A DNA stretch of 48,778 nucleotides, from positions 1-48,778 of the forward strand of contig CAZHFK010000001.1 of NCBI GenBank assembly GCA_964531215.1, written 5' to 3'. Position 1 is the first letter of the stretch. The number at the start of each line of letters is the position of its first letter. Positions 11,357 to 47,427 of the stretch are shown here, one piece after another. The stretch is from an uncultured Gammaproteobacteria bacterium. Its GTDB lineage: Bacteria > Patescibacteriota > Patescibacteriia > CAIXNZ01. A program made the translations under genes and the position numbers. A model generated the notes under the pieces. It made no database searches, was not told the origin of the DNA, and saw nothing but the letters and a program-made list of their open reading frames with translations.

Positions 11357-11596
11357 ATGTACTACGTTTATATCTTAAAATCTCTAAAAGACAATGGCCG
11401 TTATACTGGCTATACAACTGACATCGATGACCGTTTAACCGGACATTTTAAAGGTCAGGTAACTGCAACTAAAAATAGACTGCCCTTAGAATTAGTAGTC
11501 TATTTTACATTTTCTGATAAATCAAAAGCTACAAAGTTTGAACGCTATTTAAAAACAGGTTCAGGTAGAGCTTTTATAAATAAACATTTTATATAA
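11357..11596 (+). CDS. GIY-YIG nuclease family protein (short, UPF0213-like)
   Basis: MYYVYILKS...GRYTGYT......R...H motif. 79 aa. Confidence 0.85.
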   Translation: MYYVYILKSLKDNGRYTGYTTDIDDRLTGHFKGQVTATKNRLPLELVVYFTFSDKSKATKFERYLKTGSGRAFINKHFI

Positions 11597-11637
11597 GGAA
11601 AATCGTCATTACGGCGATTTTTTGTTATAATGATTTT

Positions 11638-12174
11638 ATGATAATATTTTTAATTGGTCCAGGTGGTGTGGGCAAAACAACAAGTGGCAAAATATTTGCA
11701 GATAAATTAAAATATCAATTCTTAGATTTGGATGAAGAATTTTGTAAAAGAAATGAGATAATCGGCGAATTTATAAACAAATATGGTTATAAGTCTTATT
11801 GTAAAAAAAACTCAAGTTTATTTTTTCAATTGGTAGAGAATTGCAAAGAAGAAAATACTGTATTTGTATTATCCTCTGGATTTTTAGTACACGAAGGTTT
11901 AAACTCGTTAACTCAAAAACATTTAAAAGCTTTAAAAAATCATGGGTTTTCAATTTGTCTTTTGCCAAATAAAGATAAAAAAATAGCGTCAGAGATAGTT
12001 GTTAATAGACAGTTAAAAAGAGGTTTTGGATTAAATAAAAATAGAGAAAAACAAAAATTTAATAGTCGTTATGATAAATATAAAAAGTTAGGAGATATTG
12101 TATTTTTTTCATCTGATAACCCAGAAAATATTGCAAAAATAATGTTAAATAATAGTTCCAACATAGCCAACTAG
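11638..12174 (+). CDS. Shikimate-kinase-like P-loop NTPase
   Basis: Walker A GPGGVGKTT and a DLDEEF segment laid out as in AroK. The GGG motif is replaced by SSGF, so the true substrate is uncertain. TATAAT lies 6 nt before the ATG, so the mRNA is probably leaderless. Confidence 0.6.
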   Translation: MIIFLIGPGGVGKTTSGKIFADKLKYQFLDLDEEFCKRNEIIGEFINKYGYKSYCKKNSSLFFQLVENCKEENTVFVLSSGFLVHEGLNSLTQKHLKALKNHGFSICLLPNKDKKIASEIVVNRQLKRGFGLNKNREKQKFNSRYDKYKKLGDIVFFSSDNPENIAKIMLNNSSNIAN

Positions 12175-12223
12175 TCCCCGCAAAATCCGGGAAGTTTTCT
12201 CGGTTTTTTGATATAATGAAAAT

Positions 12224-12772
12224 ATGAAAAAAGGGTCACATACAATAATTGTTCCATATAATAATCAATGGGAAGATAAATATTTAAAAGAAAAAAATTC
12301 TCTTTTAGATTTGCTTGGTGATAAAATTATTAATATTGAACATATCGGAAGCACATCAGTTAAAGGCTTATCTTCAAAGCCCATTATTGATATTGTTACT
12401 ATTATTAAAAATTTTGAGCCAGCTAAAAATTTTAATAAAATTCTGAAGGATTTAGGATATAAATTTCACTCTTCAAGTACTGAAAGACATTTTTATAGAA
12501 AAGGTGAACCAATAAGTTATCATCTTTCAATCGCTTTTTCTAATAAAGGTGGGTTTTGGGTTAGGCAAATTTTATTTAGAGACTATTTAAGGAAGAATGA
12601 TGACGCAAGAGAAGAATATCAAAAATTAAAAAAAAGATTATTAAAAAATGACCCGACTGGAGTTAATGATTATTTTGCTGGTAAAGATGTTTTTGTAAAA
12701 AAAATATTAAAATTAGCAGGATGGAAAGAGAATCAAACATATTCTGAATATGTAAAAAAAACTAACAAATAG
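12224..12772 (+). CDS. GrpB family protein (nucleotidyltransferase-fold, UPF0157)
   Basis: IEHIGSTSVKGLSSKPIIDI and the later RDYLR...Y..LK pattern are typical of GrpB. Confidence 0.8.
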   Translation: MKKGSHTIIVPYNNQWEDKYLKEKNSLLDLLGDKIINIEHIGSTSVKGLSSKPIIDIVTIIKNFEPAKNFNKILKDLGYKFHSSSTERHFYRKGEPISYHLSIAFSNKGGFWVRQILFRDYLRKNDDAREEYQKLKKRLLKNDPTGVNDYFAGKDVFVKKILKLAGWKENQTYSEYVKKTNK

Positions 12773-12868
12773 TTCCAACATAGTCAACCCTTCGGCTTTG
12801 CTCAGGGCAGGCTAAACCCCGCACAAACGCAAAATTGTGTTGTAATGACCTGTTTTTTGTTTTGACAA
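12770..12868 (+). repeat. ~100-bp repeat element, copy 1 (begins TAGTTCCAACATAGTCAACCC, ends TTTTGTTTTGACAA)
   Basis: About 85-90% identical by eye to 14552-14653. The first TAG is the stop codon of the upstream ORF. Confidence 0.8.
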
Positions 12869-12888
12869 ATATCATTTAATATAAATAT

Positions 12889-13149
12889 ATGGAAAATAAT
12901 GATAAAAAAGAAATTTTAGAAGCGCTATCAGGTTTTGCTCAGAATACACAAGATCAATTTGATAGTGTAAATAATCGAATTGACAATTTGACAGAAAGCT
13001 TTACTACACTACAAAAATCTGTTGATACTTATGCTAAGTGAGCAGAAACAATATTTGAAGAACTAGTGTCAGTTAATAATACCATTAAACGTCATGAAAA
13101 ATGGTTTGAGCAAATTGCTAAGAAACTTGATATTAAACTTGAGCATTAA
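12889..13149 (+). pseudogene. Small coiled-coil protein paralog interrupted by an in-frame TGA
   Basis: Translation is MENNDKKEILEAL...SVDTYAK*AETIFEEL...IAKKLDIKLEH. It is colinear with the intact 47104-47349 product, and the TGA at 13039-13041 aligns with a Lys codon there. Confidence 0.6.
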
Positions 13150-13243
13150 TTTTTTATTTTATTTAAAATAATAATAAGAAGTATCGCTAGTTTTAGCGAT
13201 ACTTTTTGTTATGCTGATAAGACGGCTGGAACTTTGAGTAATA

Positions 13244-13354
13244 GAATTAGTAGTTTATTTTACATTTTCTAATAAATCTAAAGCTACTAAATTTGAACGC
13301 TATCTTAAAACAGGTTCCGGACGGGCTTATATTAAAAAACACTTTTTGAGTTAG
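13244..13354 (+). pseudogene. 3' remnant of a GIY-YIG gene
   Basis: It encodes ELVVYFTFSNKSKATKFERYLKTGSGRAYIKKHFLS, colinear with the C-terminus of 11357-11596. There is no start codon or N-terminal half. It is flanked by 17-nt direct repeats at 13220-13236 and 13378-13394. Confidence 0.8.
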
Positions 13355-13436
13355 CCGTTTTATTGATAGGGCCTAGGAGACGGTTGGAACTCTGCTGGAA
13401 TAACTACCAGTTTTATGGTATAATATAAATAGAAGT

Positions 13437-14286
13437 ATGGTAAAAAAAATTATCAATTTTATAATATTACTAATATTAGTTGTAATATCTAACTATGCTG
13501 ATTTAGTGTTCCCTCAAATTGATTTAAAAAACTTTTTTTATACATCTATTGCCTTAACAATGTGTTATTTAGTATTTGAAATTTTTCTTAACGGGATAAT
13601 AAAAAATAGAATAGATGATGATAAATTACAGTATTCCTTTAAAAAAACAGTTGATATTTTATTTTTAACTATTTTTGCCGTAATAACATTGAGAATTTGG
13701 ATAGTAAATCCACGTTAATGATAGGATAGAAATACATAATAAATGCGGTGATGTAATTGATATTGGTATTTTATATACAACGATATTTGAAATTAAAGAA
13801 TGGGTCGGGGGTGACCAGCCAACAGGAAGGATAACTAAAATACCAAATGGTTTGGTACTTTTTAATAGTGTCAATAATTATACTCAAGACCATAATTTTA
13901 TCTGGGATGAGATAGAAATAGTATTAACATATAACAGTAACTGGCAAAAAGCTATAAAACAAATATTAAAAATAATTGACAAGGATACTCTAAAGTTTGA
14001 GGAATTAGCTAAAAAAGGAATTAAAAAATTAAAACAAAGATATTATTTAACAAAAAAAGAGTTAAAACCACAAGCATTTTTAAGCATTACAGAGAATTGG
14101 ATTGCGCTGTCATTTCGCTACTTAACAGATGCTAAGCAGCGTAGACAGATAAAGCACGATTTATCCTTTAAAATTTTAAAAATGATTGAAAAATCCAAAG
14201 ATATGGAAATTTCCTCATCAACATCAATAATTAATATAACGTCTTTTCCAGAATTAAAAATAAAAAATTATGCAAGAAAAAAATAA
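13437..14286 (+). pseudogene. MscS-family mechanosensitive channel, disrupted
   Basis: The TM part is in frame 3 (13437-13718). The beta-domain part (DRIEIHNKCGDVIDIGILYTTIFEIKEW..GRITKIPNG.V..N.V.NY) is in frame 1, open only from 13708. The pore-helix linker is missing. Confidence 0.7.
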
Positions 14287-14554
14287 AATTATTTTATTAG
14301 TTATTGTAGTGCTTGTATTGATAGGTTTAGTGGCTTATTTTTATTTTTGGTATCAGGATACAAACAATTTAAGAAAACAGTCAAAAGCACAAATCAATAA
14401 GGCGCAACAATTCGACGTTTTATCTGAAGAAATTAGTCAAGAGAAAGAAAGATGCCAGCAGTTTATTAATCAGGAAAGCGGGCAATTCGAAGAATTCCAA
14501 TACTGCCAAAAATTTATTCAATGGCAGAACACGCTGAATATCCTTAAACCATAG
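14270..14554 (+). CDS. Small membrane-anchored hypothetical protein
   Basis: One N-terminal TM helix. The stop TAG is the first TAG of repeat copy 2. Confidence 0.4.
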   Translation: MQEKNKIILLVIVVLVLIGLVAYFYFWYQDTNNLRKQSKAQINKAQQFDVLSEEISQEKERCQQFINQESGQFEEFQYCQKFIQWQNTLNILKP

Positions 14555-14653
14555 TTCCAACATAGTCAACCCTTCTTCGGCTACGCTCAGAGTAGGCTAA
14601 ACCTCGCACAAACGCAAAATCAGGTTATAATGGCCTGTTTTTTGTTTTGACAA
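14552..14653 (+). repeat. ~100-bp repeat element, copy 2
   Basis: TAGTTCCAACATAGTCAACCCTTCTTCGGCTACGCTCAGAGTAGGCTAAACCTCGCACAAACGCAAAA...TTTTGTTTTGACAA. Confidence 0.8.
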
Positions 14654-14699
14654 TATTTTTTGAATTGTTATATTATAAATATAATAAATTATTTTATAT

Positions 14700-14876
14700 A
14701 TGTTAGAAGATAAAGATATAGAAAAATTAACACAAGTTTTTGCAACAAAAGAAGAAATTAAGTCAATGATTGAGCCACTAGCAACAAAAGAAGTTTTTTT
14801 AGAGTTACAAAACTCAGTAGATGATTATGCCAAGAAAGCCGATACTTAAAAAGTAGATATTGAGTTAACTACTTAG
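14700..14876 (+). pseudogene. Small coiled-coil protein paralog with an internal deletion creating TAA
   Basis: MLEDKDIEKLTQVFATKEE...DDYAKKADT* is followed in frame by KVDIELTT*. The middle segment present in 47104-47349 is absent. Confidence 0.65.
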
Positions 14877-16939: not shown

Positions 16940-17046
16940 GATAGTAAAATTTAATAATTAATTGATACTTCCTCGCTTCGTTTGTCAGTTCCTTCGCTTG
17001 AAGTGTTAAAGACATCCTGAGCCATCAACGAAGTTAAGGCAAAGTG

Positions 17047-17393
17047 TGGAGATGGCGGGAATTGAACCCGCGTCTTGAAAGTTTTTTAAAATACCATCGA
17101 CAAGCTTAAATTTGAAAAGTCTTAATAATAGTTGACTGATTTGGCTAAGACCAGACCAAATCAGCTTTGCCTGAAAAAATATGACACCCCAAACCTTTTA
17201 TCAGGCATCAAAGGTAGAGATGGCTGCTGTTTTTATTAAACTGCAGCAAAAGCAAAGTTCGGAGTAAAAGCACTCTTTACTTTGGCAAATAAGTTTTTTG
17301 CACTTATTGGATTGTATTTTGGATTAACGAGGCAAAATACAGCCTCGGCTTGCAGTATTTTAAAAGTTCTTTCAATCGACGCCTGTCATCCCC
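17047..17393 (-). ncRNA. ssrA: tmRNA (SsrA)
   Basis: The 5' end GGGGATGACAGGCGTCGA pairs with the 3' end GACGCGGGTTCAATTCCCGCCATCTCCA, which closely matches the E. coli ssrA 3' end. The acceptor has G3-U70. A PK1-like pseudoknot is present (GAGGC/GCCTC with GTATTTT/AAAATAC). The putative tag frame 17301-17236 ends in TAA TAA. Confidence 0.9.
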
Positions 17394-22981: not shown

Positions 22982-23010
22982 TTGACAATTTATCCAATTA
23001 ATGTTAGGAT
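22982..23010 (+). promoter_or_regulatory. Island promoter 1
   Basis: TTGACA, 17 nt, TAGGAT, followed by a ~110-nt leader containing hairpin GCTTTGGTTAG/CTAGCCAAAGC. Confidence 0.5.
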
Positions 23011-23124
23011 GAACTATTACAAATATCATAGCTTTGGTTAGCTTTAACTAGCCAAAGCAATTGAGGTTTGTAAAGGAAAGGAATATTTGAAAACAAAATA
23101 GATCAGAAAAAAGGAGGAAAAACA

Positions 23125-23886
23125 ATGAAAAAGCTTATTACCGTATTTGTGATTTTTACTGTGATGATGATTTTTTGTTCCGCTACTGTGGCCGAAGAAA
23201 GTAATGTTGGCCTGGCTCCGGGCAACCTGGGATTTGTGGCCGGTGGTGGCGAAGGCGGCCAGGCGAGTGATGAGGTGAACGACTTTCAGTTCATTTATCT
23301 TGGCGGTTATTACACTGCCATGCTGAATGACAAGGTGGGGATCCGCGGGACTATGATGTACTTCGGCAACTTTGAGGAGCAGGAAGAGTATTACAGCTCT
23401 TCGGCTTCCGGCTTGTCTTCGGCAGTGGAAACTTACAGGCCCATGATCGGTCTCACCTTGCAAGGTGAGCAAAACGGTTGGTGGGTCTGGAACCACATCT
23501 CTGTGGGCGCTGATCATCAGGAAGACCAGGGCTGGCTGCCAGTCACGATTCTGCATGAAGAGCTGATGTTTGGTTCTGGCTGGTTCTACAATTTTTTGTG
23601 CGCCACTGCCAGGGTCGGAGCTGAGGACTATGAGTCCTATTATCTCCGGGATCAGGTGTACTTTAAGGTGAACAACTGGCTGCACATCGGTCCTCAGGTC
23701 CAGCAAGTCTGGTTTTACCAGACAGACGACGAGGGGGATAATAAGCTGGTTTACGAACCGGCGTGGGGCGGACAAATTAAGTTCGCTGAAAATACCTCTG
23801 AACCCAAGTATTCGTTGACAGTCGGTGCGACCAACGGTGACTTTGTTGGCACGACCTATCATGTCGACGTTTGGATCGCACTTTAA
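23125..23886 (+). CDS. Secreted protein with beta-barrel-like alternating pattern
   Basis: SD AAAGGAGG and signal peptide MKKLITVFVIFTVMMIFCSATVA. Many short amphipathic strands are rich in G/Y/W/F. The 293-aa antisense ORF is discounted. Confidence 0.7.
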   Translation: MKKLITVFVIFTVMMIFCSATVAEESNVGLAPGNLGFVAGGGEGGQASDEVNDFQFIYLGGYYTAMLNDKVGIRGTMMYFGNFEEQEEYYSSSASGLSSAVETYRPMIGLTLQGEQNGWWVWNHISVGADHQEDQGWLPVTILHEELMFGSGWFYNFLCATARVGAEDYESYYLRDQVYFKVNNWLHIGPQVQQVWFYQTDDEGDNKLVYEPAWGGQIKFAENTSEPKYSLTVGATNGDFVGTTYHVDVWIAL

Positions 23887-23905
23887 GTTTTTTTCAAAAA
23901 GTTCA

Positions 23906-23939
23906 AGCTGGGAATGTAAAAACATTCTCAGCTTTTTTA
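23906..23939 (+). terminator. Rho-independent terminator
   Basis: Hairpin AGCTGGGAATG-N5-CATTCTCAGCT followed by TTTTTT. Confidence 0.75.
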
Positions 23940-24042
23940 TTAGATAAAACTAAAGTTTTACAATCCATAGGTTAATTTGCCTTTAGATAAAACTGAAGTT
24001 TTATAATCCGTAGGTCAGGATAAAGCCGAAGTTTTATAATCC
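23940..24042 (+). repeat. Array of three 27-bp palindrome-containing units (operator-like array 1)
   Basis: TTAGATAAAACTRAAGTTTTAYAATCC starts at 23940 and 23983, with a degenerate copy at 24016. It ends 9 nt before the -35 box. Confidence 0.85.
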
Positions 24043-24051
24043 GGGTTTAGC

Positions 24052-24080
24052 TTGACAAAAAAATTTTTTTATGATAGAAT
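24052..24080 (+). promoter_or_regulatory. Island promoter 2 with an A/T homopolymer spacer
   Basis: TTGACA, AAAAAATTTTTTTATGA, TAGAAT. The spacer is 17 nt. Confidence 0.6.
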
Positions 24081-24151
24081 GATAGATCAATAAATAGTTT
24101 GAAATATTTGAATTTTGAAAAATCAACCAAACCAATAAGGAGGAAAGAAAA

Positions 24152-25138
24152 ATGACTGAAGAACTGGAAACCAGAGGCCTTGATGTCAGGGGATTTATTT
24201 CTAAGCACGGAAGATTGGTTTTGCTTCTGTTGCTCTTTGTTCTGCTGATAATTTTGCTTTTCAGCAGATGTGACAGCTGCAGCGGCCGACTCAGTGGCAT
24301 CAAAAATCATCTGCCGTTTATCGGTGATGACGAGACTAAACCAGACGTGGCTGACGGCTGCACTTACTGTCGAGACAATGAAGAGTTTCGTCGACAGGTA
24401 GTTTCTTTGGTCACCACTGATCCTGAGATCGCTGCCTGGCTCAAAGAGCTGATCTGCGAGACTGACTGCAGTGCTCCGCCGCTGGCTAAGAAAAAAGCAG
24501 CCCCTAAAAAGAAAAAAACGGCTAAGCCGAAAACCTGCTCGGATCTGGGGTCTGCCTGGTCGTGTGTTAACGTGCGTAAATATAGTTGCGTGGAAACACG
24601 TAAAAATCTTTGCAAGGGACCCATCCGTTTCCGTTGCGGACGCGGGTGCAGTTTGCGTTCCAAGCCTGACCCTGATCCGCCGGATTCTCCGGAGGCAAGT
24701 GAAGCGAGTTGGGAGTATCACACTTTTGAGTGTGAAGGCACGGAGTGTGATGTGTTGTATTCAGATGTGCTGACGAACTCGCGGGCAACCATTGTTGATG
24801 ACAATGGTCGTCCGATTTCCACTACGGGTTCGGGGCCGGAACGCCATTTTACACCGACTCGGCGAGTGCGGGTTCGCGTCCCGGCTGGTACTCGGGTTAA
24901 CTACGCGAATATGCGTTCAACGAGCGGGCAGTGGGCAGTCTCAACTGACGGCGCTCGGGTTGAAGGCTCGAGTGAGGTGTCGGATCCCAATTTTGGGGTC
25001 AAGCACAACAACCGCCCCTTGCGTGCGAATGACTCGCGTAAAATGCGAGGTGACTGGACATTTGAAGTTGATGCTCCAGAACCGACTTCGGTTAATCCGA
25101 AGTCTGATAATGGTGCCGGCACTTTCAATGTCCGGTAA
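24152..25138 (+). CDS. Type II (signal-anchor) membrane protein with a Cys-rich, Lys-rich ectodomain
   Basis: SD AAGGAGG, TM helix LVLLLLLFVLLIILLF at aa 22-37, 14 Cys, and a KKKAAPKKKKTAKPK tract. The C-terminus carries the WAVSTDG motif. Confidence 0.7.
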   Translation: MTEELETRGLDVRGFISKHGRLVLLLLLFVLLIILLFSRCDSCSGRLSGIKNHLPFIGDDETKPDVADGCTYCRDNEEFRRQVVSLVTTDPEIAAWLKELICETDCSAPPLAKKKAAPKKKKTAKPKTCSDLGSAWSCVNVRKYSCVETRKNLCKGPIRFRCGRGCSLRSKPDPDPPDSPEASEASWEYHTFECEGTECDVLYSDVLTNSRATIVDDNGRPISTTGSGPERHFTPTRRVRVRVPAGTRVNYANMRSTSGQWAVSTDGARVEGSSEVSDPNFGVKHNNRPLRANDSRKMRGDWTFEVDAPEPTSVNPKSDNGAGTFNVR

Positions 25139-25157
25139 AAAATATTTTTAAGCTATT

Positions 25158-25189
25158 AAGCTGGAGACAACAAGTCTCCAGCTTTTTTC
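25158..25189 (+). terminator. Rho-independent terminator
   Basis: Hairpin AAGCTGGAGAC-AACA-GTCTCCAGCTT followed by TTTT. Confidence 0.8.
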
Positions 25190-25345
25190 TTAGATAAAAC
25201 TGAAGTTTTACAATCCTAATCAATTTTTTTTCTTAGATAAAACTGAAGTTTTACAATCCGTAGGTTAATTTGCCTTTAGATAAAATTTAAGTTTTATAAT
25301 CCTGATCAATTTTTTTTCTTAGATAAAACTGAAGTTTTATAATCC
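25190..25345 (+). repeat. Array of four 27-bp palindrome-containing units at exact 43-bp phasing (operator-like array 2)
   Basis: Units start at 25190, 25233, 25276 and 25319. The spacers alternate between TAATCAATTTTTTTTC-type and GTAGGTTAATTTGCCT. Confidence 0.9.
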
Positions 25346-25367
25346 TAATCAAATTTTAATAAAAATC

Positions 25368-25396
25368 TTGACAAAAAAAATTTTTTATGCTACACT
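25368..25396 (+). promoter_or_regulatory. Island promoter 3 with an A/T homopolymer spacer
   Basis: TTGACA, AAAAAAATTTTTTATGC, TACACT. The spacer is 17 nt. Confidence 0.6.
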
Positions 25397-25476
25397 GAGA
25401 CATTAGGTTAAAGACAGAGTCAAGGTCAATAAAGGATCTTTAAATACAAAAAATCAAGAAAAAGGAGGGATTCAAA

Positions 25477-26094
25477 ATGAAGAATTTGGTTATGCTTGCT
25501 ATGTGCGTTATGATGATTGTCTCTTTTGGCTGTTCGGCCATTGAAAGAGAGACGCTTTTGTCGTCTTCGGAGGGACAAACCAATGAATTTCAGGCGACTG
25601 ATCCGGCTCAGGTGACTGAGGCACCGGCGCCATTGCCTGGTTCAACCACCCCGCCAGAGAGTGAGCAGTCCGTGGCTCAGGAGACTGCGCCACAGCCCGC
25701 TCCGGCGACAGGGCCTGTCAGTTTGGAAGGCCAGGGTGGTGGGACCATTGAGATTCAGGCGATTCCCGGAACATGGGGCAAGGCTTTTAAAGCTTTTTAC
25801 ATCACCTGGTTTTCGGACGAGGGGCAGCGGTTTCAGTCTTTCCCGCCGCTCCACACGCTGAAATTCAATAACGTGGCTCCTGGAGAGTATTTTGTCAATC
25901 TCCAGTGGACCACAAAACGCTGGGTAGTGGAGACCAGTCCACCGGTTGACGCTGATCATCGCGCCCTAAACGGCCGGGTCCGCATTCGCATGAATGGCGG
26001 CCCCTGGCACGAGTTTACTTCGGCTGATACTTCTAAGGTGGTTAATCCGGCGACCGGAGAAACCTATTGGAATCTTCGGGTAGTCGTTCCTTGA
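25477..26094 (+). CDS. Secreted (lipo)protein with a Pro/Ala/Thr-rich linker and the island beta-module
   Basis: SD AAAGGAGGG, signal peptide with FGCSA (lipobox-like), linker APAPLPGSTTPPESEQ..APQPAPATGP, then the GGGTIEIQAIP...RWVVETSPP...NGRVRIRMNGG module. Confidence 0.8.
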   Translation: MKNLVMLAMCVMMIVSFGCSAIERETLLSSSEGQTNEFQATDPAQVTEAPAPLPGSTTPPESEQSVAQETAPQPAPATGPVSLEGQGGGTIEIQAIPGTWGKAFKAFYITWFSDEGQRFQSFPPLHTLKFNNVAPGEYFVNLQWTTKRWVVETSPPVDADHRALNGRVRIRMNGGPWHEFTSADTSKVVNPATGETYWNLRVVVP

Positions 26095-26117
26095 TTGATT
26101 TCTGTCAAACAAATTTA

Positions 26118-26150
26118 ATCGGAGTCTTACGAGACTCCGATTTTTATTTT
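26118..26150 (+). terminator. Rho-independent terminator
   Basis: Hairpin ATCGGAGTCT-TAC-GAGACTCCGAT followed by TTTTTATTTT. Confidence 0.8.
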
Positions 26151-26219
26151 ACAATAAAACTTAACAAATAAGATAAAGATGTTTAATTAAGTTATTAAAG
26201 TAACAAAGGCGGCAATAGC

Positions 26220-26759
26220 ATGAAAGAATTTATTGGATTGTTTTTTGTTCTTGTTTGGCTGAGTTTGGCTGGTTGTTTTTTTAAAAATAATTTAGGGATT
26301 ACATCTGCGCCGGTTAGCGAACCGCAAATGATTGTCATTTCCGGACCCTTGTTCGGGGATTCAGCCAGTCAGACGGCTTTGGTTGGCAACTGCCCGGTTA
26401 GCCTGCAAGGCAGTGGTGGCGGCACTATTGAAATAGAGCCGATTCCAGATTCCTTGTATGGTGAAACTTTTAATGCGGGTTATCTGACCTGGTATATTAA
26501 TAAAAATGATCGCTTTTAGCGGTTCTGTCAGGCCGGGCGTTTAATTTTTGATAAAATTTTGCTTGGCGAGTATTTATTGAATTTCCGCCGGAATACAGGA
26601 CGCTGGGTAGTTGAAACCGAGCCGCCGGTTGAAGATGATCATCGGCCGTTGAACGGCCGGCTAAGGGTACGTTTTAATGGCGGCGAGTGGCACGAGTTTA
26701 CTTCGGCAGATACTTTTAGAACCGGCCAATACAGGAATTTACGTTTGGTTGTACCCTGA
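26220..26759 (+). pseudogene. Paralog of 25477-26094 interrupted by a single in-frame TAG
   Basis: ORFs 26220-26519 and 26559-26759 are in the same frame. The TAG at 26517-26519 aligns with the Gln in RFQSF of the paralog. The SD is weakened (AAAGGCGG) and the promoter hexamers are degenerate (TTAACA, 17 nt, TAATTA). Confidence 0.65.
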
Positions 26760-26779
26760 ATTTTTTTCAAAAAATATTA

Positions 26780-26808
26780 AATCGAGACTTGGGTCTCGAT
26801 TTTTTTTG
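26780..26808 (+). terminator. Rho-independent terminator
   Basis: Hairpin ATCGAGAC-TTGG-GTCTCGAT followed by TTTTTTTT. Confidence 0.8.
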
Positions 26809-26854
26809 GGATTTATATTAAGATATATAATGATATTATAAAAAAAACATATGC

Positions 26855-26883
26855 TTGACAAAATAGCTACAATCATATATAAT
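26855..26883 (+). promoter_or_regulatory. Island promoter 5
   Basis: TTGACA, 17 nt, TATAAT. It lies inside the N-terminal extension proposed by the ORF track. Confidence 0.6.
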
Positions 26884-26982
26884 TATAGATCCTGGATAAA
26901 AGTCCAGTTATTCATATTTAAACGGATAGGCGGTTTATTGGCCTTGCAATACACAAGAACTTTGAAAAGGAGGAATAATAAT

Positions 26983-28536
26983 ATGAAAAAAATAGTCACT
27001 ATTTTTTTGCTTTTTGTTTTTTGTCTGCTACTTTCGGCTTGTGCTGTTTCTCATGGCCAGGCTGCTTTGTTTCAGACAACAAAGACACTTGATCAACGGT
27101 TAACCAGCTTGGAAGAATCTCCAAGCCGGTTTAGTGATTGGGTAGCTGATCAGATCATTGAGCAGCGCTTGGAAACCATGACCATTGATTATGACTGCTT
27201 TTCCATGCCTGAATGCCGAGCGCAGGTTGTCCGGGTGAAAAAGGCATTGCCTGAGATTAAAATTAGGATTTATGTCAATGCTATGGAACTTTTTGAGCGG
27301 TCTCGGGAGCTTAATCAGCGTCCGGTACAGCAAAAAATCGCTCAAGCAGTCAAAGCTAATCATCCGAATTATTATCTGCGTGACATTAATGGTAATCGCA
27401 TCCAATACTGGCAGCAGTATGAGATGTACATGATGAATCTGTCCAGTCATTGCCCTGAGTATAATGACAAGCCTTGGTCAGAGTTTTTGGTTGATAGTCT
27501 TTACGAACAGGTTTATCAACCCAATGCCCGCTTGATTGACGGCATTGAGCTTGATAATATGTGGCCGTATGTTTCTTGGATCAATGAGTTCAGAAATGTG
27601 CAAATTGATCTGAATAACGATGGCCAGCCCGAAGATTATTGGACCCTGGATTATTATTGGCGCCAGGGTATGTTTCACTTGATTGACTACATTCGTTATA
27701 AATTCCCAGACGGGTTTATTGTCACTGGCCGTGGATTCCATTACCGCTATAATAGTCGGCTTGACGGTCTGACTTTTGAGCATGTTTTTGAACATGGTGA
27801 ATCCGGTATTCAGGGCGGTAATTTTTCCAAAGTTGATCGTTGGGTTCGCTTGTCACAACCAGGTAAATATTACACCTGGAACGCCAGACAAAACCAGCAA
27901 ACCCATAATATCACTCAATATGTAATTTCACTTTTGGGTGATGGTTACTTTGCTTTAGATGGCGGTGATACCGGTCATGGAGAGTTTACAACTTTTCCCG
28001 GTTACGTCAATTTGGGCCAGGCTATGGAGCCGGCTCGTTATCCGTATCAGGTGATTTTTGACTCTGATCAGTCATTGATTGGTTTGCAAGGAGAGTATAC
28101 TCCCCAGGCCAATAATTGGCTGCGTTTGGATAATGGCCAGACAATATCAATCAGCGCTAAAAAAGGCCAGCAAGTTCAGTTTTACTATCAAATTCTGAGT
28201 GGCCAGTACTGTGCTTCAGAAATCAAATTCACTTATCCTGGCATGCCGGAAAAAGATAAAAATCAGTTTGACGCACATCGCTGGCAGGATGGTGAATATT
28301 ATGCTTTGGCAAATGAAGACGGAGCATTTGCCTGGAGTTATACAGGACCTGGCTATGCTTTATTGACTCATATTGTTATCCGGGATACTAATTTGGGCAA
28401 ACCTTATTTCATGCGCCAGTATGAAAAAGGCTATGTCTATTATAATCCCGGTGACCAGCCTATTTATCTGGAATTTCCAGGTCAAGGAATTATTGAATTA
28501 AAGTCTGGGCAAGGCAAAATAATGCTTAGCCAATAG
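26983..28536 (+). CDS. Lipoprotein, possibly a glycoside-hydrolase-like TIM barrel (GHL15-like); function unverified
   Basis: SD AAAGGAGG 8 nt before ATG 26983. Lipobox LLSAC. The DGIELDNMW, DLNNDGQPED and WRQG pattern is reminiscent of GHL-type putative hydrolases. It ends with TAG followed by a terminator. Confidence 0.7.
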   Translation: MKKIVTIFLLFVFCLLLSACAVSHGQAALFQTTKTLDQRLTSLEESPSRFSDWVADQIIEQRLETMTIDYDCFSMPECRAQVVRVKKALPEIKIRIYVNAMELFERSRELNQRPVQQKIAQAVKANHPNYYLRDINGNRIQYWQQYEMYMMNLSSHCPEYNDKPWSEFLVDSLYEQVYQPNARLIDGIELDNMWPYVSWINEFRNVQIDLNNDGQPEDYWTLDYYWRQGMFHLIDYIRYKFPDGFIVTGRGFHYRYNSRLDGLTFEHVFEHGESGIQGGNFSKVDRWVRLSQPGKYYTWNARQNQQTHNITQYVISLLGDGYFALDGGDTGHGEFTTFPGYVNLGQAMEPARYPYQVIFDSDQSLIGLQGEYTPQANNWLRLDNGQTISISAKKGQQVQFYYQILSGQYCASEIKFTYPGMPEKDKNQFDAHRWQDGEYYALANEDGAFAWSYTGPGYALLTHIVIRDTNLGKPYFMRQYEKGYVYYNPGDQPIYLEFPGQGIIELKSGQGKIMLSQ

Positions 28537-28555
28537 ATTTTGTAAATAAAATTTT

Positions 28556-28592
28556 AAGCAGCCGAGTTTTTCTCTGGCTGCTTTTTTTATTT
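28556..28592 (+). terminator. Rho-independent terminator
   Basis: Hairpin AAGCAGCCGAG-N7-CTGGCTGCTT followed by TTTTTT. Confidence 0.75.
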
Positions 28593-28620
28593 TAGCCTGT
28601 ACAGTTAACTATACATAGCC

Positions 28621-28649
28621 TTGACAAAATTTTCAAAAGATGATAAAAT
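28621..28649 (+). promoter_or_regulatory. Island promoter 6
   Basis: TTGACA, 17 nt, TAAAAT. Confidence 0.5.
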
Positions 28650-28721
28650 AAGATATTCTGTAAACAATAGAAAAACTAGCTGGAAATAACCTGGAAATAA
28701 CTCAGAAAAGGAGGGATCGTT

Positions 28722-29228
28722 ATGATAAAGGTCTTTAAAATTAGTTTTTTATTTTTGATTCTGTTGTGTTTTATGGTCGCTTGCGGGCCGGCTAAAAAGC
28801 CGTCTAATAATGGCACAGGTAATGGCACAGGCACTTTCGATACAGGCGGTCAGCCTAATCCGGCACCTATGCCAGTTACACCGCCTACACCTGCGCCTGC
28901 ACCTGCGTCCGCACCTAATCATACTCCAAAGGATGGTTTGGTGACTATAACGGTCAGTGCCCAACGTGATTTGTCGTATGCCGTGACTGATATCGGCTAT
29001 GGCAAACATTACGCCAGTGGCGGGACAATCACATTTCAGATCACTACCGGTTATCACGCGATTAACGCCACTGACTCTGACTGGAATTTCGCGGTTTCTG
29101 ATAATCGCGCCAATTACCCGTTGTATGTCAATGGGGTCAAATTGTCGCGGGTCAGGTCAGACCCGAAAGGAGGAATGTATTATTTTTTCGTCTATTCGGA
29201 CGGAAGCATTTCTCCGACACCGCCATAA
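28722..29228 (+). CDS. Lipoprotein with a Pro/Ala-rich linker and one island beta-module
   Basis: SD AAAGGAGGG, lipobox FMVAC, linker PNPAPMPVTPPTPAPAPASAP, then the module with WNFAVSD..YPLYVNGV..GGMYYFFVYSDGSI. Confidence 0.8.
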   Translation: MIKVFKISFLFLILLCFMVACGPAKKPSNNGTGNGTGTFDTGGQPNPAPMPVTPPTPAPAPASAPNHTPKDGLVTITVSAQRDLSYAVTDIGYGKHYASGGTITFQITTGYHAINATDSDWNFAVSDNRANYPLYVNGVKLSRVRSDPKGGMYYFFVYSDGSISPTPP

Positions 29229-29245
29229 AATGGCTTTAAAAATTT

Positions 29246-29282
29246 AACCAGGAATAAGTCAAATTGTTCCTGGTTTTTTTAT
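29246..29282 (+). terminator. Rho-independent terminator
   Basis: Hairpin AACCAGGAA-N12-TTCCTGGTT followed by TTTTTT. Confidence 0.75.
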
Positions 29283-29305
29283 TGTTTGATTTTTGTTAAT
29301 AACTA

Positions 29306-29334
29306 TTGACAAAATCATAAAAATAGTATATAAT
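29306..29334 (+). promoter_or_regulatory. Island promoter 7
   Basis: TTGACA, 17 nt, TATAAT. Confidence 0.6.
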
Positions 29335-29396
29335 AAAATATTGTATTTTTTGACAAAAACCATCGGAAATAAACCTAAAAAAAGGAGGAAAGAAAA

Positions 29397-30953
29397 ATGA
29401 AAAAGATGGTAAAAATATTGACAACAGTTTTTTGCTGTTTGTTAATCGTCATTTTGAGCAGTGCTTGTGAGGGGACTGCCGAATCTGGTACCGGCTCTGC
29501 TGATAACAGTGATTCCACCACTTTGACTTTTCAGGTGGAAGGTTATCAGAACCAGCCGGATTTGTACTGCGCTGCCAAGGGAATAGAATGGGAGCCTATC
29601 CCGTTTTCTCAGAACGGCACAGCCAGGCTGGAGGTTAGTTATCTGCCTCAGGACGTATTTTGCAACATTGAAGACGGTCCTGATCAGTGGATAGTTAACT
29701 CCGACGGTGTTTGTCAGGGCTATCACTTTTATGTGAATGACATGGAAGTGACTACCTGGCAGAAAAATGACTATGGCGGCCGCAATTACAGTTTCCATGT
29801 CAAGGATGACGGTCAGGTTGAATTGATCGGTAACAATATCGTGTTTACTGATTGTTCGGCCGGTAGTGAGCCTGGGTGTCAGGTAACTGATTTGCAGGTC
29901 GGTTTTTCAGGCTATCAATCAGGTCAGACTGCGACGCTTTATTGCGCCGGTGATGGGCTTGGCTGGGAGTCTGTTACATTGGATAGCAATGGTCAGGCTG
30001 ACTTGTCAGTTTGTCCGGCGGTTTTCCAGTGTAATGTCAAAGTTGACAACAGCTGGGCTGTTCGTTCGGACGGGGTTTGTCAAGCTTATACTTTTGAGGT
30101 AAATGGCACAACCATTACTTCAGGAGTTCCCAGCTTGTCCGGCGGTCAAAACTATGCTTTTGAACTGCTGGACAGTGGCACAGTCCAACTCTACGGAGAC
30201 AGCCTTGAAGCAATTGACTGCTCTGGTAGCGCTGACGACACGACTTGCGTTGAACCCCTTAGTGTTGAGTTCAGCGGTTACAGTCAAGGCGACAGCGTTA
30301 CGCTTTACTGCGCCGGCAACGGACTTGGCTGGGGTGAGACCAGTCTGTCTGACAATGGCCAAGCAACTTTGACTGGCTGCCCCGGAGTATTCGAATGCAA
30401 CTTGGAAGTTTCTCCGGGTAACTGGGCAGTTCGTTCAGACGGGGTTTGCCAAGCTTACACTTTTGTGGTCAATGGCACAACCATTAATACTGGTATTGCC
30501 GCTTTGTCCGGCGGTCAAAACTATGCTTTTGAACTGCTGGCCGGCGGCACAGTCCAACTCTGGGGCAGTGCCTTGGAGCAAATCGATTGTTCAGGCAATA
30601 CTGGCAATCCTGATATTTTATGCGACCTGGAATTGGTTTACCAGGGTACGTATCAGGATCCGGTTCTGAAAATAACCGGCGGCCGTCTTAGCTGGGATGA
30701 TGATTATCATTTTGGCTTAGACGGTGACACCATGTCGGTTTTGTTGCCTGATATTCATCCGGATACTTATTACGCCAACATGGATATGCTTGGCAATGGC
30801 AGTATCTGGTATGTCAACCATCAGGGCATTTTGGCAGGCAATTCATTGTCGGGCAATGATGTCTGGCTGGATTACTGGGAATCCAATGACATGGGCGGCG
30901 GTAACTTGGTCTTTACCTTGACCGACACCTGTGAAGTGGATTTTCCGGAATAA
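29397..30953 (+). CDS. Lipoprotein built from three Cys-rich tandem modules plus one diverged module
   Basis: SD AAAGGAGG and lipobox LSSAC. The ~122-aa module (..LYCAG.GLGW......NGQA.L..CP.VF.CN....WAVRSDGVCQAYTF.VNGTTI......LSGGQNYAFELL..GTVQL.G......DCSG) occurs three times. Confidence 0.85.
   Translation: MKKMVKILTTVFCCLLIVILSSACEGTAESGTGSADNSDSTTLTFQVEGYQNQPDLYCAAKGIEWEPIPFSQNGTARLEVSYLPQDVFCNIEDGPDQWIVNSDGVCQGYHFYVNDMEVTTWQKNDYGGRNYSFHVKDDGQVELIGNNIVFTDCSAGSEPGCQVTDLQVGFSGYQSGQTATLYCAGDGLGWESVTLDSNGQADLSVCPAVFQCNVKVDNSWAVRSDGVCQAYTFEVNGTTITSGVPSLSGGQNYAFELLDSGTVQLYGDSLEAIDCSGSADDTTCVEPLSVEFSGYSQGDSVTLYCAGNGLGWGETSLSDNGQATLTGCPGVFECNLEVSPGNWAVRSDGVCQAYTFVVNGTTINTGIAALSGGQNYAFELLAGGTVQLWGSALEQIDCSGNTGNPDILCDLELVYQGTYQDPVLKITGGRLSWDDDYHFGLDGDTMSVLLPDIHPDTYYANMDMLGNGSIWYVNHQGILAGNSLSGNDVWLDYWESNDMGGGNLVFTLTDTCEVDFPE
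29520..30640 (+). repeat. Intragenic tandem repeat, period ~366-375 bp (3 copies)
   Basis: The motif CTTTAYTGCGCC occurs at 29937 and 30303. GTTCGTTCRGACGGGGTTTG occurs at 30060 and 30429. Copies 2 and 3 stay highly similar at the DNA level. Confidence 0.85.
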
Positions 30954-30973
30954 TTTTGTCAAAAATAACTTTT

Positions 30974-31004
30974 AAACAGGGAGTTTCGTGCTCCCTGTTT
31001 TTTA
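30974..31004 (+). terminator. Rho-independent terminator
   Basis: Hairpin AAACAGGGAG-N7-CTCCCTGTTT followed by TTT. Confidence 0.8.
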
Positions 31005-31005
31005 C

Positions 31006-31034
31006 TTGACAAAAAAAATACTATATGCTAATTT
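31006..31034 (+). promoter_or_regulatory. Island promoter 8 (A8 run after the -35 box)
   Basis: TTGACA, 17 nt, TAATTT. Confidence 0.5.
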
Positions 31035-31146
31035 GAAATAATTATATAAAATAAAAATATAAGGAAAATTGGTGTTTTTTTAGCACCTTGAAATAAATGG
31101 AAATTTAAGGTATTGAAATTTTCACAGGAAAAAAAGGAGGATCATA

Positions 31147-32421
31147 ATGATACAGAAAAAAGTTTTTTTACTGCTTTTGACCTTTTGCCTTGCCCTGACT
31201 TTTTCTTGCGGCAATGCCGAAGAACACGACGATGACGACGGTTCTGCCGGCGGGGGTGGCAATCTGCCACCGACCAATTTTCGTTTGATTTTTCAGTCAA
31301 ACAATCTTGGTGTCGGTGATATCCTGCACTGCGATGCTCCGGACCTGAACTGGGAGCCGGGCATTGAGTTTAACCAGAATCATCGGGCAGTCATCAATAC
31401 TGCTTCGATCGGCACTTATCTTTGCAATGTACAGTTGCAAAATAATGAATGGGTGGTCTATTCGTCCACCGACCATTTGTTTGGCGCCACAGTAACCAGC
31501 CAGCAAGGCGCTACCGTGCTGAGCACTTACCGTCTAACCGAAGAGGATATCGTCTCTAACGGTATTGGCGGCGGCAACTGGGAATTATGGCTGGCCGATA
31601 GCGGTATAGTGAGTGATTCCGGTGGCGGCGATACTGTTGATCCGGTTGATCCGCCGCCTGTCGAATGCGTTGATCCGGTTGTCAGTACTGAGCTGGAAGT
31701 GGTCATCAAAAGCTATGTCAATTTTGATTTTACGCCACGAGTTCGGTTTTCGGGTGACGGATTTACATCGCGGACAATGACTCGGTCGGCTCCCAACATG
31801 TACACTTACACATACACCGGGGTAGCCACGGACGACTTGTATACGATCAATTTTGAGGATCCGACAACCGGAGAATACCTCTATGACGAGAGCGGACCAA
31901 TGGGGCCGTATGTGGTGATTGTCAATGGTATTCAGGTCAGTGAAATGCTGGATGACGATATTAAGGTGATACTTGACCCTTGCGCCAATGTTATCACCTC
32001 AGTCGTTGACTTGACTTTCACTTTCCTGCCGTCTGACACTACTGCCTATGACGTTGACGTCATTTTTGGCCTGAATTCTTTTTTGGCTTATGGCATGAGC
32101 GCTGACGGCAGCCAGTGGACAACTACCATTTATGACGTGCCCCCCGGCCGTTACGAGTTCAATATCCGCTATCTGACCTCAACCGATCCTGATGTGGCTG
32201 CCTGGCCAGACCATGTCAACGGCGATGTAGCGGTCAATGGCACAGCCATGACCATCTATGATATGATCATTTACTCGGAAACCGTTCCCTGGAACGAACC
32301 GACCGGCACCCCGCTTTTGATGGTCAGAGCTGATTTCCTGATCGATGTTTACCCGGACGGCACTGTTGTCGGCGTGAACATGCGAGACGGAACAATCGGG
32401 ATTATTATCCCATTACCATAA
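31147..32421 (+). CDS. Lipoprotein with an acidic N-terminus and island-type beta-modules
   Basis: SD AAAGGAGG and lipobox LTFSC. The first module is LHCDAPDLNWEP...YLCNVQLQNNEWVVYSS...GGGNWELWLADSGIV. Later segments carry VIVNG and VAVNG strands. Confidence 0.8.
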   Translation: MIQKKVFLLLLTFCLALTFSCGNAEEHDDDDGSAGGGGNLPPTNFRLIFQSNNLGVGDILHCDAPDLNWEPGIEFNQNHRAVINTASIGTYLCNVQLQNNEWVVYSSTDHLFGATVTSQQGATVLSTYRLTEEDIVSNGIGGGNWELWLADSGIVSDSGGGDTVDPVDPPPVECVDPVVSTELEVVIKSYVNFDFTPRVRFSGDGFTSRTMTRSAPNMYTYTYTGVATDDLYTINFEDPTTGEYLYDESGPMGPYVVIVNGIQVSEMLDDDIKVILDPCANVITSVVDLTFTFLPSDTTAYDVDVIFGLNSFLAYGMSADGSQWTTTIYDVPPGRYEFNIRYLTSTDPDVAAWPDHVNGDVAVNGTAMTIYDMIIYSETVPWNEPTGTPLLMVRADFLIDVYPDGTVVGVNMRDGTIGIIIPLP

Positions 32422-32435
32422 TTTCAATACCTTTT

Positions 32436-32476
32436 AAGCCCCCCATCTTTAATAAAGGTGCGGGGGCTTTTTTATT
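32436..32476 (+). terminator. Rho-independent terminator at the right edge of the island
   Basis: Hairpin AGCCCCC...GGGGGCT followed by TTTTT. Confidence 0.65.
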
Positions 32477-32504
32477 TGACAAAATTTAAAAAATATGTTA
32501 AAAT
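32476..32504 (+). promoter_or_regulatory. Sigma-70-type promoter for the ligase-like gene
   Basis: TTGACA, 17 nt, TAAAAT. Confidence 0.5.
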
Positions 32505-38400: not shown

Positions 38401-38685
38401 TTAATCCTCACTTAAAATCGTTTTGGGGTTAGGGGAGTAGAGTTTATTATTGATTTTCCAAGTATCAACATATTGGCCAAGGCCGTATTTATTATTTTTA
38501 TTTTTAATGGTTGTTTTTTTCTGTGACCATTTAAGTAAACTGTCAAAATTTATTTTATACCTGCCTCGGACCACAACATAGCGGATTTCTTGATTTTTAA
38601 TAGCCCGTCTGATTGTTTTTTGATCAACTCCGAATAATTTACCGGCTTCGGAAACAGATAGTCTGATTAGATTAAAATTGGTCAT
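38401..38685 (-). CDS. Helix-turn-helix DNA-binding protein (excisionase/MerR-type HTH)
   Basis: LSVSEAGKLFGVDQKTIRRAIKNQEI pattern. Confidence 0.65.
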   Translation of the reverse strand: MTNFNLIRLSVSEAGKLFGVDQKTIRRAIKNQEIRYVVVRGRYKINFDSLLKWSQKKTTIKNKNNKYGLGQYVDTWKINNKLYSPNPKTILSED

Positions 38686-46172: not shown

Positions 46173-46207
46173 AACCCGGCCCCTTTTAAGGGGTCGGGTT
46201 TGTTTTT
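46173..46207 (+). terminator. Rho-independent terminator
   Basis: Hairpin AACCCGGCCCCTT-TT-AAGGGGTCGGGTT followed by TGTTTTT. Confidence 0.8.
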
Positions 46208-47026: not shown

Positions 47027-47050
47027 AATTGAGAAATTAAGAAACTTTTT

Positions 47051-47078
47051 TTGACAATTTTTAATAAATTGCTATAAT
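47051..47078 (+). promoter_or_regulatory. Sigma-70-type promoter
   Basis: TTGACA, 16 nt, TATAAT. Confidence 0.55.
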
Positions 47079-47103
47079 ATTAATATAAGTCATAAATATT
47101 TTT

Positions 47104-47349: not shown

Positions 47350-47377
47350 ATTTTAATTTTTTATAAGTTAGTTATAT

Positions 47378-47405
47378 AAAGAAGCCAATTAGGCTTCTTT
47401 TTTGT
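47378..47405 (+). terminator. Rho-independent terminator
   Basis: Hairpin AAAGAAGCC-AATT-AGGCTTCTTT followed by TTT. Confidence 0.75.
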
Positions 47406-47427
47406 AAAGTTAGAATATTATTTGTTT

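Follow-up and report, generated by a model that had tools for sequence, protein, structure and literature searches.

Tandem arrays of a conserved palindrome-containing unit beside envelope-protein genes in a Buchananbacteria-like genome

Short tandem repeats that carry an inverted repeat are familiar from several systems. Iterons typically recur with a period of about 22 bp, the BOX elements of pneumococci contain tandem 45-bp boxB modules, and BOX as well as repetitive extragenic palindromic (REP) elements and bacterial interspersed mosaic elements (BIME) occur in tens to hundreds of copies per genome, with characteristic flanking modules or alternating orientation. In sopC of the F plasmid, 12 direct repeats of 43 bp each contain a 16-bp inverted repeat that is bound by SopB (PMC3177203). 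The K-boxes of ComK have the form AAAA-N5-TTTT and lie 8, 18 or 31 bp apart, the 31-bp arrangement being type III (PMC3536758). Here, we report on two arrays of a palindrome-containing unit in contig CAZHFK010000001.1 (assembly GCA_964531215.1), which was deposited under an uncultured Gammaproteobacteria bacterium and is placed among the Patescibacteriota by GTDB; the whole stretch of 48,778 nt that we analysed is called the window. The arrays are real, non-random and under selection. With moderate confidence, we regard them as putative clusters of binding sites for one sequence-specific protein that would modulate the adjacent promoters. Of the systems compared, they appear to work most like an ordinary multi-operator cluster, and we claim no membership in a named regulon.

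Array anatomy and selection on the core

Array 2 consists of four units on the + strand, at 25190–25216, 25233–25259, 25276–25302 and 25319–25345. Units 1, 2 and 4 match TTAGATAAAACTGAAGTTTTAYAATCC without a mismatch; unit 3 has two mismatches, with an altered left arm and centre (AAAATTTAAGTTTT). A pattern search and Tandem Repeats Finder (25183–25357; period 43, 4.1 copies, score 241) bore out the exact 43-bp period that the first-pass annotation had given for the starts at 25190, 25233, 25276 and 25319. The perfect inverted repeat, AAAACT-GA-AGTTTT, was indeed found in three of the four units, the one at 25276 carrying AAAATT-TA-AGTTTT in its place, and can be extended to ATAAAACT-GA-AGTTTTAT if Y is T. 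The array begins 5 nt 3′ of a terminator hairpin (25158–25184) and its last unit ends 22 nt 5′ of a –35 box (TTGACA at 25368), as annotated. Since 43 bp correspond to 4.1 helical turns, the sites lie near the same face of the DNA, as had been proposed, but not exactly on it. The suggested 86-bp higher-order repeat with alternating spacers proved weak, with 81% identity between its halves of 86 bp and spacers in the order A-B-A-A′; Tandem Repeats Finder recognised only the 43-bp period.

The three-unit version announced upstream of the gene at 24152 was present as well, although its third unit is left-degenerate and spaced by 33 instead of 43 bp. This array 1, again on the + strand, comprises units at 23940–23966 (TTAGATAAAACTAAAGTTTTACAATCC), 23983–24009 (TTAGATAAAACTGAAGTTTTATAATCC, 43 bp from the first) and 24016–24042 (CAGGATAAAGCCGAAGTTTTATAATCC, 33 bp from the second), and begins directly 3′ of the T-run of the hairpin 23905–23934. 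Its third unit, the seventh copy in the window, was uncovered through the right half AAGTTTTAYAATCC; the core of this unit (24019–24042, GATAAAGCCGAAGTTTTATAATCC) ends 9 nt 5′ of the –35 box. At up to three mismatches, TTAGATAAAACTGAAGTTTTAYAATCC gave six matches in the window against 0.00 expected (100 shuffles). All seven units lie on the + strand and are confined to two gene-free gaps, and no copy beyond both arrays was found in the 48.8-kb window, even at three mismatches to the 18-bp palindrome. The unit is asymmetric: the right half with its extension, AAGTTTTAYAATCC, is invariant in 7/7 window copies save for Y, and all substitutions other than those at Y or the central base fall in the left arm. 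Both array-bearing intergenic regions are paralogous end to end (terminator, units, promoter), and the arrays, 1.25 kb apart, form direct repeats (77 nt at 94% identity) that flank one gene. A/T tracts in the arrays are phased at 10.5–11 bp, which is compatible with bent DNA but leaves the conserved C, G and CC positions unexplained.

Related loci were sought with the pattern GATAAANNNNAAGTTTTAYAATCC in 185,579 genomes, one per species. Nine matches were obtained; eight were single chance matches within genes such as trmD and one, locus L004, was real. Orthologous loci (L038, L039, L042 and L043) were reached through protein searches. L039 (JGI 3300037504; SRR12689834), whose 205-aa protein is 75% identical to the one encoded 3′ of array 2, carries two units in each of the two orthologous gaps, with spacings of 42 and 46 bp; its spacers are GC-richer than those of the window and unrelated to them, and the last unit lies 15 nt from the –35 box. 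No units are present in L042 (68% identity in the 205-aa protein), where the terminator runs directly into the same promoter, or in L043 (59% identity in the 328-aa protein that is encoded between the window arrays), where the terminator is followed by about 40 nt of unrelated sequence and then the same promoter. In L038 (78% identity in the 205-aa protein), the DNA 5′ of the promoter is exchanged for unrelated sequence. This locus belongs to the closest named relative (Buchananbacteria GCA_014729025.1); its positions 1–145 hold the unrelated sequence with a divergent open reading frame (ORF) start (MNKTKYDREERFKWYRQVDKYK) at the contig end, and an insertion or rearrangement may explain the swapped DNA at the place of the window array.

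L004 is the same contig as L045 (CAZPVP010000015.1), which was binned in the Gammaproteobacteria metagenome-assembled genome (MAG) GCA_964590345.1, with SRP141376 as parent metagenome. At 73% identity, Buchananbacteria proteins are the best matches of its ComEC-MBL protein, and the contig is probably mis-binned. We also noted genes of the type found in the Candidate Phyla Radiation (CPR) on it, namely a split ComEC, NDK and a type IV pilus cluster. The two units of L004 form a 43-bp tandem, are 98% identical and run against the direction of the genes. Situated across the stop codon of a Competence-domain (ComEC) gene and 5′ of the terminator of that gene, they lie about 100 bp upstream of the next promoter and 90–150 bp upstream of a leaderless MBL gene (ComEC/MBL) with an extended –10 promoter. 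L046/L047, the nearest relative of L004, has no units; the 14 kb of L039 and 11.5 kb of L045 that were scanned yielded none beyond their arrays. A two-unit pattern applied to JGI metagenome contigs returned 28 loci, all of them unrelated repeats sharing only AAGTTTTAYAA. In viral contigs, two-unit and one-unit patterns gave nothing or single chance matches within genes, blastn of the arrays against PLSDB plasmids and INPHARED phages gave no match, and a literature search with the palindrome string yielded no paper. An unrelated iteron-like family, GGTTTGCAGGCTAGAAGTTTTACAACCCCAGCC, was encountered at L011, L013, L016–L018, L022, L025–L027, L031, L032, L035 and L037. Its units stand in tandem with variable spacing at many contig ends, followed by repeated GCGCATAAATGCAACT motifs; the family occurs mostly on Ga0210059 contigs, plus several JGI24xxx contigs, and looks like a plasmid or phage origin region.

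We aligned 13 units from three Buchananbacteria-like genomes (seven from the window, four from L039, two from L004). The information was near-maximal over a 24-bp core, GATAAAACTRAAGTTTTAYAATCC, with almost none outside. Between genomes, the core is 91–96% identical (window versus L039, 92%), whereas the 9 nt on either side reach 17–45% (window versus L039, 36–45%). For comparison, window and L039 share 63% identity at 910 four-fold sites in eight flanking orthologues, and the four L039 units contain four mismatches in 96 positions (P ~2e-14 under the four-fold neutral rate). This excess over both the four-fold sites and the chance-level adjacent DNA demonstrates that the core is under selection. 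Its variable sites are the base at the centre of the dyad, which may be G, A or T, Y and, in two window copies, the left arm; in addition, one L039 unit has a single substitution at core position 1, and one L004 unit has one at position 22. The right-arm AAGTTTT is invariant in 13/13 units. Left-arm changes occur without a compensating right-arm change and the hairpins of single-stranded units are weak (–1.6 to –3 kcal/mol), suggesting that duplex DNA, not a folded strand, is read. Array folding gave z-scores of –1.5 and –1.9, which are not significant, and Rfam offered no credible match for the arrays; a structured RNA or Rfam family was rejected on these grounds, together with the uncompensated arm changes. 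Judged from sequence, conservation of this kind agrees with a protein that reads duplex DNA and not with a structured RNA or a neutral repeat.

Around the core, much varies. Array sizes are three and four in the window, two and two in L039 and two in L004, never below two, and the copy number among these close relatives is 0, 2, 3 or 4. Conservation in related genomes, on which the first-pass annotation had made its reading depend, holds for the core sequence but not for the copy number, which ranges from 0 to 4. The centre-to-centre spacing is 33, 42, 43 or 46 bp, mostly 42–43 and thereby near four helical turns. Between the last unit and the –35 box there are 9, 15 or 22 nt, which puts the proximal centre at about –58, –64 or –71, and the orientation of the units relative to genes and their placement relative to the terminator vary as well. 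Arrays adjoin a terminator hairpin, which is 1–5 nt off in four arrays and 50 nt in L004. As with the anatomy and the core constraint, this variability in copy number, spacing and position is observed directly. Spacers are genome-specific and nearly identical inside one genome, indicating that the exact 43-bp register of the window and L004 goes back to concerted evolution or to units that were duplicated locally not long ago. Neither this phasing nor the 86-bp superstructure looks like a conserved design; both seem to have resulted from tandem duplication in the recent past.

Putative regulator sites and competing explanations

If the units are regulator sites, the 18-bp dyad ATAAAACT-RA-AGTTTTAT would probably be occupied by a dimer of the protein, which would make further contacts to AATCC on one side. 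Placed on at least two neighbouring sites, the protein would modulate two envelope-protein genes at their strong promoters of the sigma-70 type and, in the L004 genome, the ComEC/MBL DNA-uptake gene. We infer protein binding, recognition by a dimer and the effect on transcription. Negative or modulatory control seems likelier than classical activation, given that the promoters come close to the consensus and that relatives use them without units. The protein might repress from upstream, join the two arrays in a loop across 1.25 kb or block upstream contacts. Arrays would gain and lose units of about 43 bp through tandem duplication and deletion, hence the different numbers of sites among relatives.

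Several features speak for this regulator-site reading. The combination of dyad symmetry and a variable central base is the signature that a dimer site would be predicted to leave. As in multi-operator arrays, the palindromic core has a variable centre, at least two sites lie roughly integral helical turns apart, and the arrays are intergenic, promoter-adjacent and limited to few genes. A transcription-factor operator should be repeated non-randomly and conserved above the neutral rate in orthologous gaps, and both were found (13 units, 0 chance matches expected). Furthermore, the surrounding block of genes has about 8 similar monocistronic promoters, of which only 2 carry units, the pattern expected of a regulon-specific site. 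The lack of matches in Rfam, plasmids, phages and viral contigs also speaks against DNA of a mobile element or an RNA family. Four of the five arrays stand directly upstream of the conserved promoter, the fifth being that of L004/L045; with regard to its reversed orientation, a palindromic site can act either way round. What endured of the operator-like reading proposed in the first-pass annotation is a selected unit resembling a sequence-specific site, with a dyad, in at least two copies, intergenic and upstream of a promoter in 4/5 arrays; the phasing is not conserved, and the association with promoters, given L004/L045, is not universal.

Other observations weigh against regulator sites. 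Position and phase relative to the promoter are inconsistent: the proximal centres at about –58, –64 and –71 (relative to the inferred transcription start) are half-turns apart, which means that no fixed face relative to RNA polymerase is kept, and one 46-bp and one 33-bp spacing occur. No regulator gene was found near the arrays. The promoters (perfect –35, 17-bp spacer, TGn) are unchanged in the unit-free L042 and L043, and the upstream DNA is replaced in L038; the units are thus dispensable for promoter function. In L004, a terminator hairpin separates the array from the nearest promoter and the array falls within a 3′ untranslated region (UTR). The link with promoters was assessed in about 75 kb of DNA from unit-bearing genomes. 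Assembled copy numbers need caution, since tandem repeats in short-read MAGs can be wrong and two short-read Logan contigs (L040 and L044) end exactly within units. Ordinary multi-operator arrays also differ in that the sites here lie far upstream (about –58 to –200) of near-consensus promoters, their phase is not conserved, relatives dispense with them and one array is reversed behind a terminator. For the individual roles that had been suggested, this means that an activator is not needed, as near-consensus extended –10 promoters occur without units in L042 and L043, and that sites from about –58 to –200 are outside the usual repressor positions.

A more far-reaching version, possible but doubtful in our view, would make the core a Buchananbacteria-specific regulator site that couples surface or host-contact proteins with ComEC/MBL uptake, the gain and loss of units serving as an evolvable rheostat. 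As part of this proposal, 0, 2, 3 or 4 units of 43 bp would constitute a phase-variation-like switch of envelope genes in an episymbiotic CPR bacterium.

It is unlikely, though worth weighing, that the units bind a protein without any gene-regulatory role, be it at a centromere-like site of the sopC/parS type, in nucleoid organisation or as a roadblock or insulator between terminator and promoter. The geometry matches that of sopC (PMC3177203) in the period of 43 bp, the direct tandem arrangement, the inverted repeat within each unit and the lack of conservation in the DNA between the sites; by our comparison, 43-bp direct repeats with an inverted repeat are found for the window only. Such a function would also agree with the loose position relative to promoters, the constant neighbourhood of a terminator hairpin and the selection on the core, and A/T tracts at 10.5–11 bp suggest bent DNA suited to wrapping. 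However, the window contains no ParA, ParB or SopB-like gene, and neither linked parA/parB (sopA/sopB) nor a SopB-type 16-bp site emerged from gene scans of the window or from the comparison with PLSDB plasmids. The arrays lie on a chromosome, resemble neither sopC nor any plasmid in sequence and comprise two to four units, and the 43-bp period is not kept, as 33, 42 and 46 bp occur. Moreover, a site essential for segregation should not be missing from close relatives.

A selfish or neutral repeat is likewise improbable. It could be REP/BIME-like, pneumococcal boxB-like, similar to a miniature inverted-repeat transposable element (MITE), or a minisatellite, and would spread by duplication, gene conversion and occasional transposition. 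This would account for units at three non-orthologous loci (intergenic regions IGR1 and IGR2 and the L004 ComEC gap), for their presence or absence among close relatives, and for genome-specific spacers and near-identical tandem copies (98% in L045), which indicate recent local duplication. Both intergenic regions are more alike within a genome than orthologues are, pointing to concerted evolution, and at 2 kb from the L004 array there is a Y1-transposase-like gene that may be relevant. BOX and REP/BIME elements resemble the arrays as short palindromic intergenic units, often by terminators, with strain-variable tandem copy number. The GTAG of REP elements is echoed by GTAGG 3′ of several units, but neither the T-run spacers nor L004 contain it. 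Without selection, a repeat would be expected to decay evenly along its length, whereas here the core is kept at 91–96% between genomes and the spacers of the same arrays are at chance level. The copy number appears very low in the DNA sampled (seven units per 48.8 kb in two gaps, one other match among 185,579 genomes), with one or two arrays per sampled genome, a strict core and free spacers. Copies within an array are all direct, and neither terminal inverted repeats, target-site duplications nor alternating orientation were evident; no RayT, Y1 or other transposase was found in the window.

That the unit acts as a promoter-like decoy or weak tandem promoter, its TAYAAT after the T-run titrating sigma-70 RNA polymerase or starting short transcripts, is very improbable. 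The most invariant part, AAGTTTTAYAATCC, does include TATAAT or TACAAT, units are co-directional with the downstream gene in 4/5 arrays, and TTAGAT-N13-TATAAT in the unit bears a loose likeness to TTGACA-A8T6-ATG-TAnAnT in the real promoters. These real promoters are strictly TTGACA-N17, however, and a consensus scan of both strands found none inside the arrays. With no –35 box at 16–18 bp and no TGn, units were rejected as sigma-70 promoters on either strand. In addition, the L004 units point antisense into the ComEC gene, and the conserved GATAAAAC and CC would be left unexplained. A promoter for an extracytoplasmic function (ECF) sigma factor was rejected as well, for there is no AAC...CGT-type arrangement at the right spacing.

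An RNA-level role (structured 3′ UTR or small RNA) or a recombination element making the 328-aa gene an excisable cassette is scarcely credible: the L004 array is transcribed as 3′ UTR, the window arrays are direct repeats around one gene (77 nt at 94%) and a unit of 27–28 bp comes near the length of dif and other core recombinase sites, but the arrays of the window and L039 lie 3′ of the terminator, the z-scores are only –1.5 and –1.9 without an Rfam match or compensatory changes, the arms are 2 bp apart (or 10 bp, as ATAA-TTAT) against a core gap of 6–8 bp for Xer and tyrosine recombinases, the window has no recombinase gene save for a 94-aa excisionase-type helix-turn-helix (HTH) protein 13 kb off, and no gene-less variant was seen.

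The remaining candidates were discarded. ComK K-boxes share the A4...T4 dyad and a distance of about four turns between boxes (13 + 31 = 44 versus 43 bp), and one of the arrays adjoins a ComEC DNA-uptake gene. The units differ in having A4-N6-T4 with 29 bp between boxes and 24 conserved positions including C, G and CC, whereas ComK reads a degenerate A/T sequence; furthermore, ComK is a protein of the Bacillales with no counterpart in the window, and the other arrays precede genes without a known competence link. With no N5 spacing, no A/T-only recognition and no ComK in the window, K-boxes were rejected. Iterons, the second reading offered in the first-pass annotation, are similar in their direct tandem repeats, internal dyad, three to four copies and subsequent AT-rich stretch, but the period here is 43 bp and the AT-rich stretch is a conserved promoter. 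They were dismissed for want of a rep gene in the window, for the chromosomal housekeeping genes around (tmRNA, L20, IF-3, SmpB) and for the lack of plasmid or phage similarity. Nor is there an origin signature: the cumulative GC skew of the window rises monotonically without a switch, and the unit contains no DnaA box of the TTATCCACA type. A CRISPR array is excluded by spacers of 7–22 bp (at least about 21 needed), two recurring spacer types, the same spacer in both arrays and the absence of cas genes from the window. The CIRCE element of HrcA is the 27-bp TTAGCACTC-N9-GAGTGCTAA; only its first four bases, TTAG, match the unit, and the outer arms are not inverted repeats. The geometry fits neither a DnaA box nor a dif/Xer site (11-6-11). 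Tn7- or Mu-type transposon ends would need inverted end arrays, and both window arrays run in the same direction; replication-terminator (Ter) sites were rejected because the arrays of the window and of L045 face opposite ways with respect to gene direction and no skew switch occurs.

Genomic setting of the arrays

Array 1 follows a 253-aa gene (23125–23886) and its hairpin terminator with T-run (23905–23939, + strand; 13 pairs, then TTTTATTAGA); a hairpin like it is also present in IGR1 of L039. On the other side of the array lie the promoter (24052–24080, + strand; TTGACA-N17-(TG)ATAGAAT, 11 of 12 consensus matches with TG present) and coding region (24152–25138, + strand) of the 328-aa gene, whose Cys/Lys-rich product is membrane-anchored, has no known domain and is 59–74% identical to its orthologues. 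The hairpin terminator and T-run of this gene (25158–25189, + strand; 11 pairs, then TTTTCTTAGA) precede array 2, which is followed by the promoter (25368–25396, + strand; TTGACA-N17-(TG)CTACACT) and coding region (25477–26094, + strand) of the 205-aa gene, encoding a predicted lipoprotein without a known domain. Each window array is thus located between a hairpin terminator and the near-consensus sigma-70 promoter of an envelope-protein gene. The promoter core, CTTGACA followed by an A/T run and ATG.TA.A.T, is invariant in six intergenic regions of four genomes.

The window represents chromosomal DNA of low GC content (about 30%). It encodes tmRNA, tRNA-Asp, L20, IF-3, SmpB, PGI, PPDK and Lgt as well as the CPR-typical DUF5656 and DUF5667 proteins, and its proteins have their closest relatives in Candidatus Buchananbacteria MAGs. 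For the tmRNA gene (17044–17393), the predicted tag peptide, AKNLFAKVKSAFTPNFAFAAV, is unusually long. The arrays lie within a block of 43–49% GC (about 23000–32500) between Wzz-like and Wzy_C polysaccharide genes. All genes of the block are monocistronic, each with its own near-consensus TTGACA-N17-TAnAAT promoter and hairpin terminator, a long leader and a strong Shine-Dalgarno sequence, and their products carry signal peptides or are lipoproteins or membrane-anchored proteins without known domains. Synteny of the block is kept in L038 and L039, which marks it as old and rules out a recent foreign island.

Two irregularities were seen downstream of array 2. The ORFs 26220–26519 and 26559–26759 resemble two parts of one broken copy, probably a pseudogene, paralogous to the 205-aa lipoprotein gene; at this place, L038 and L039 each carry a single intact gene of 173–184 aa. 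The start of the ORF 26851–28536, which encodes a GHL15-domain protein, overlaps a perfect TTGACA-N17-TATAAT promoter (26855–26883), and the true start is probably Met45 at 26983, which opens the signal peptide MKKIVTIFLLF.

Pfam and NCBIfam scans agreed with the first-pass annotation that the only DNA-binding candidates in the window are an HTH_17 excisionase-type protein (38401–38685) and an ECF sigma factor (40000–40578); the window scan found no unit close to either gene. Other repeats in the window are of a different kind. Region 46205–47700 holds complex non-coding repeats with a 312-bp tandem unit (46409–46979, 98% identical), a 137-nt module that occurs four times and GC-rich hairpin modules (GGCTGGAGCAG..GGCTCCGG) that recur as well, and no convincing ORF, tRNA or Rfam match was found in it. 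Dispersed repeats of 55–115 nt (families D9–D12 and D14) occur at 11487–14862 and 47046–47266. At least one copy overlaps an 81-aa ORF (47104–47349) of coiled-coil-like appearance, and a conserved 3′ motif, ATAGTTCCAACATAGYCAAC, is present three times; these repeats may belong to a small multigene family.

Possible meaning for regulation in the Candidate Phyla Radiation

To our knowledge, gene regulation in uncultivated CPR bacteria is almost unknown, and very few recognisable transcription factors have been found in them. Whichever explanation holds, the arrays are a lineage-restricted example of a familiar type of element and introduce no new principle. If the unit is a selfish repeat of low copy number, it would still explain why assemblies of the lineage break at these intergenic regions. 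As a selected 24-bp motif by envelope-protein and ComEC genes in three genomes, it provides a testable handle on regulation in CPR bacteria: the motif could be used, in the form of the scan pattern GATAAANNNNAAGTTTTAYAANCC, to search complete MAGs for a regulon, and it could likewise serve for phylogenetic profiling of a co-occurring DNA-binding protein and for binding experiments in vitro.

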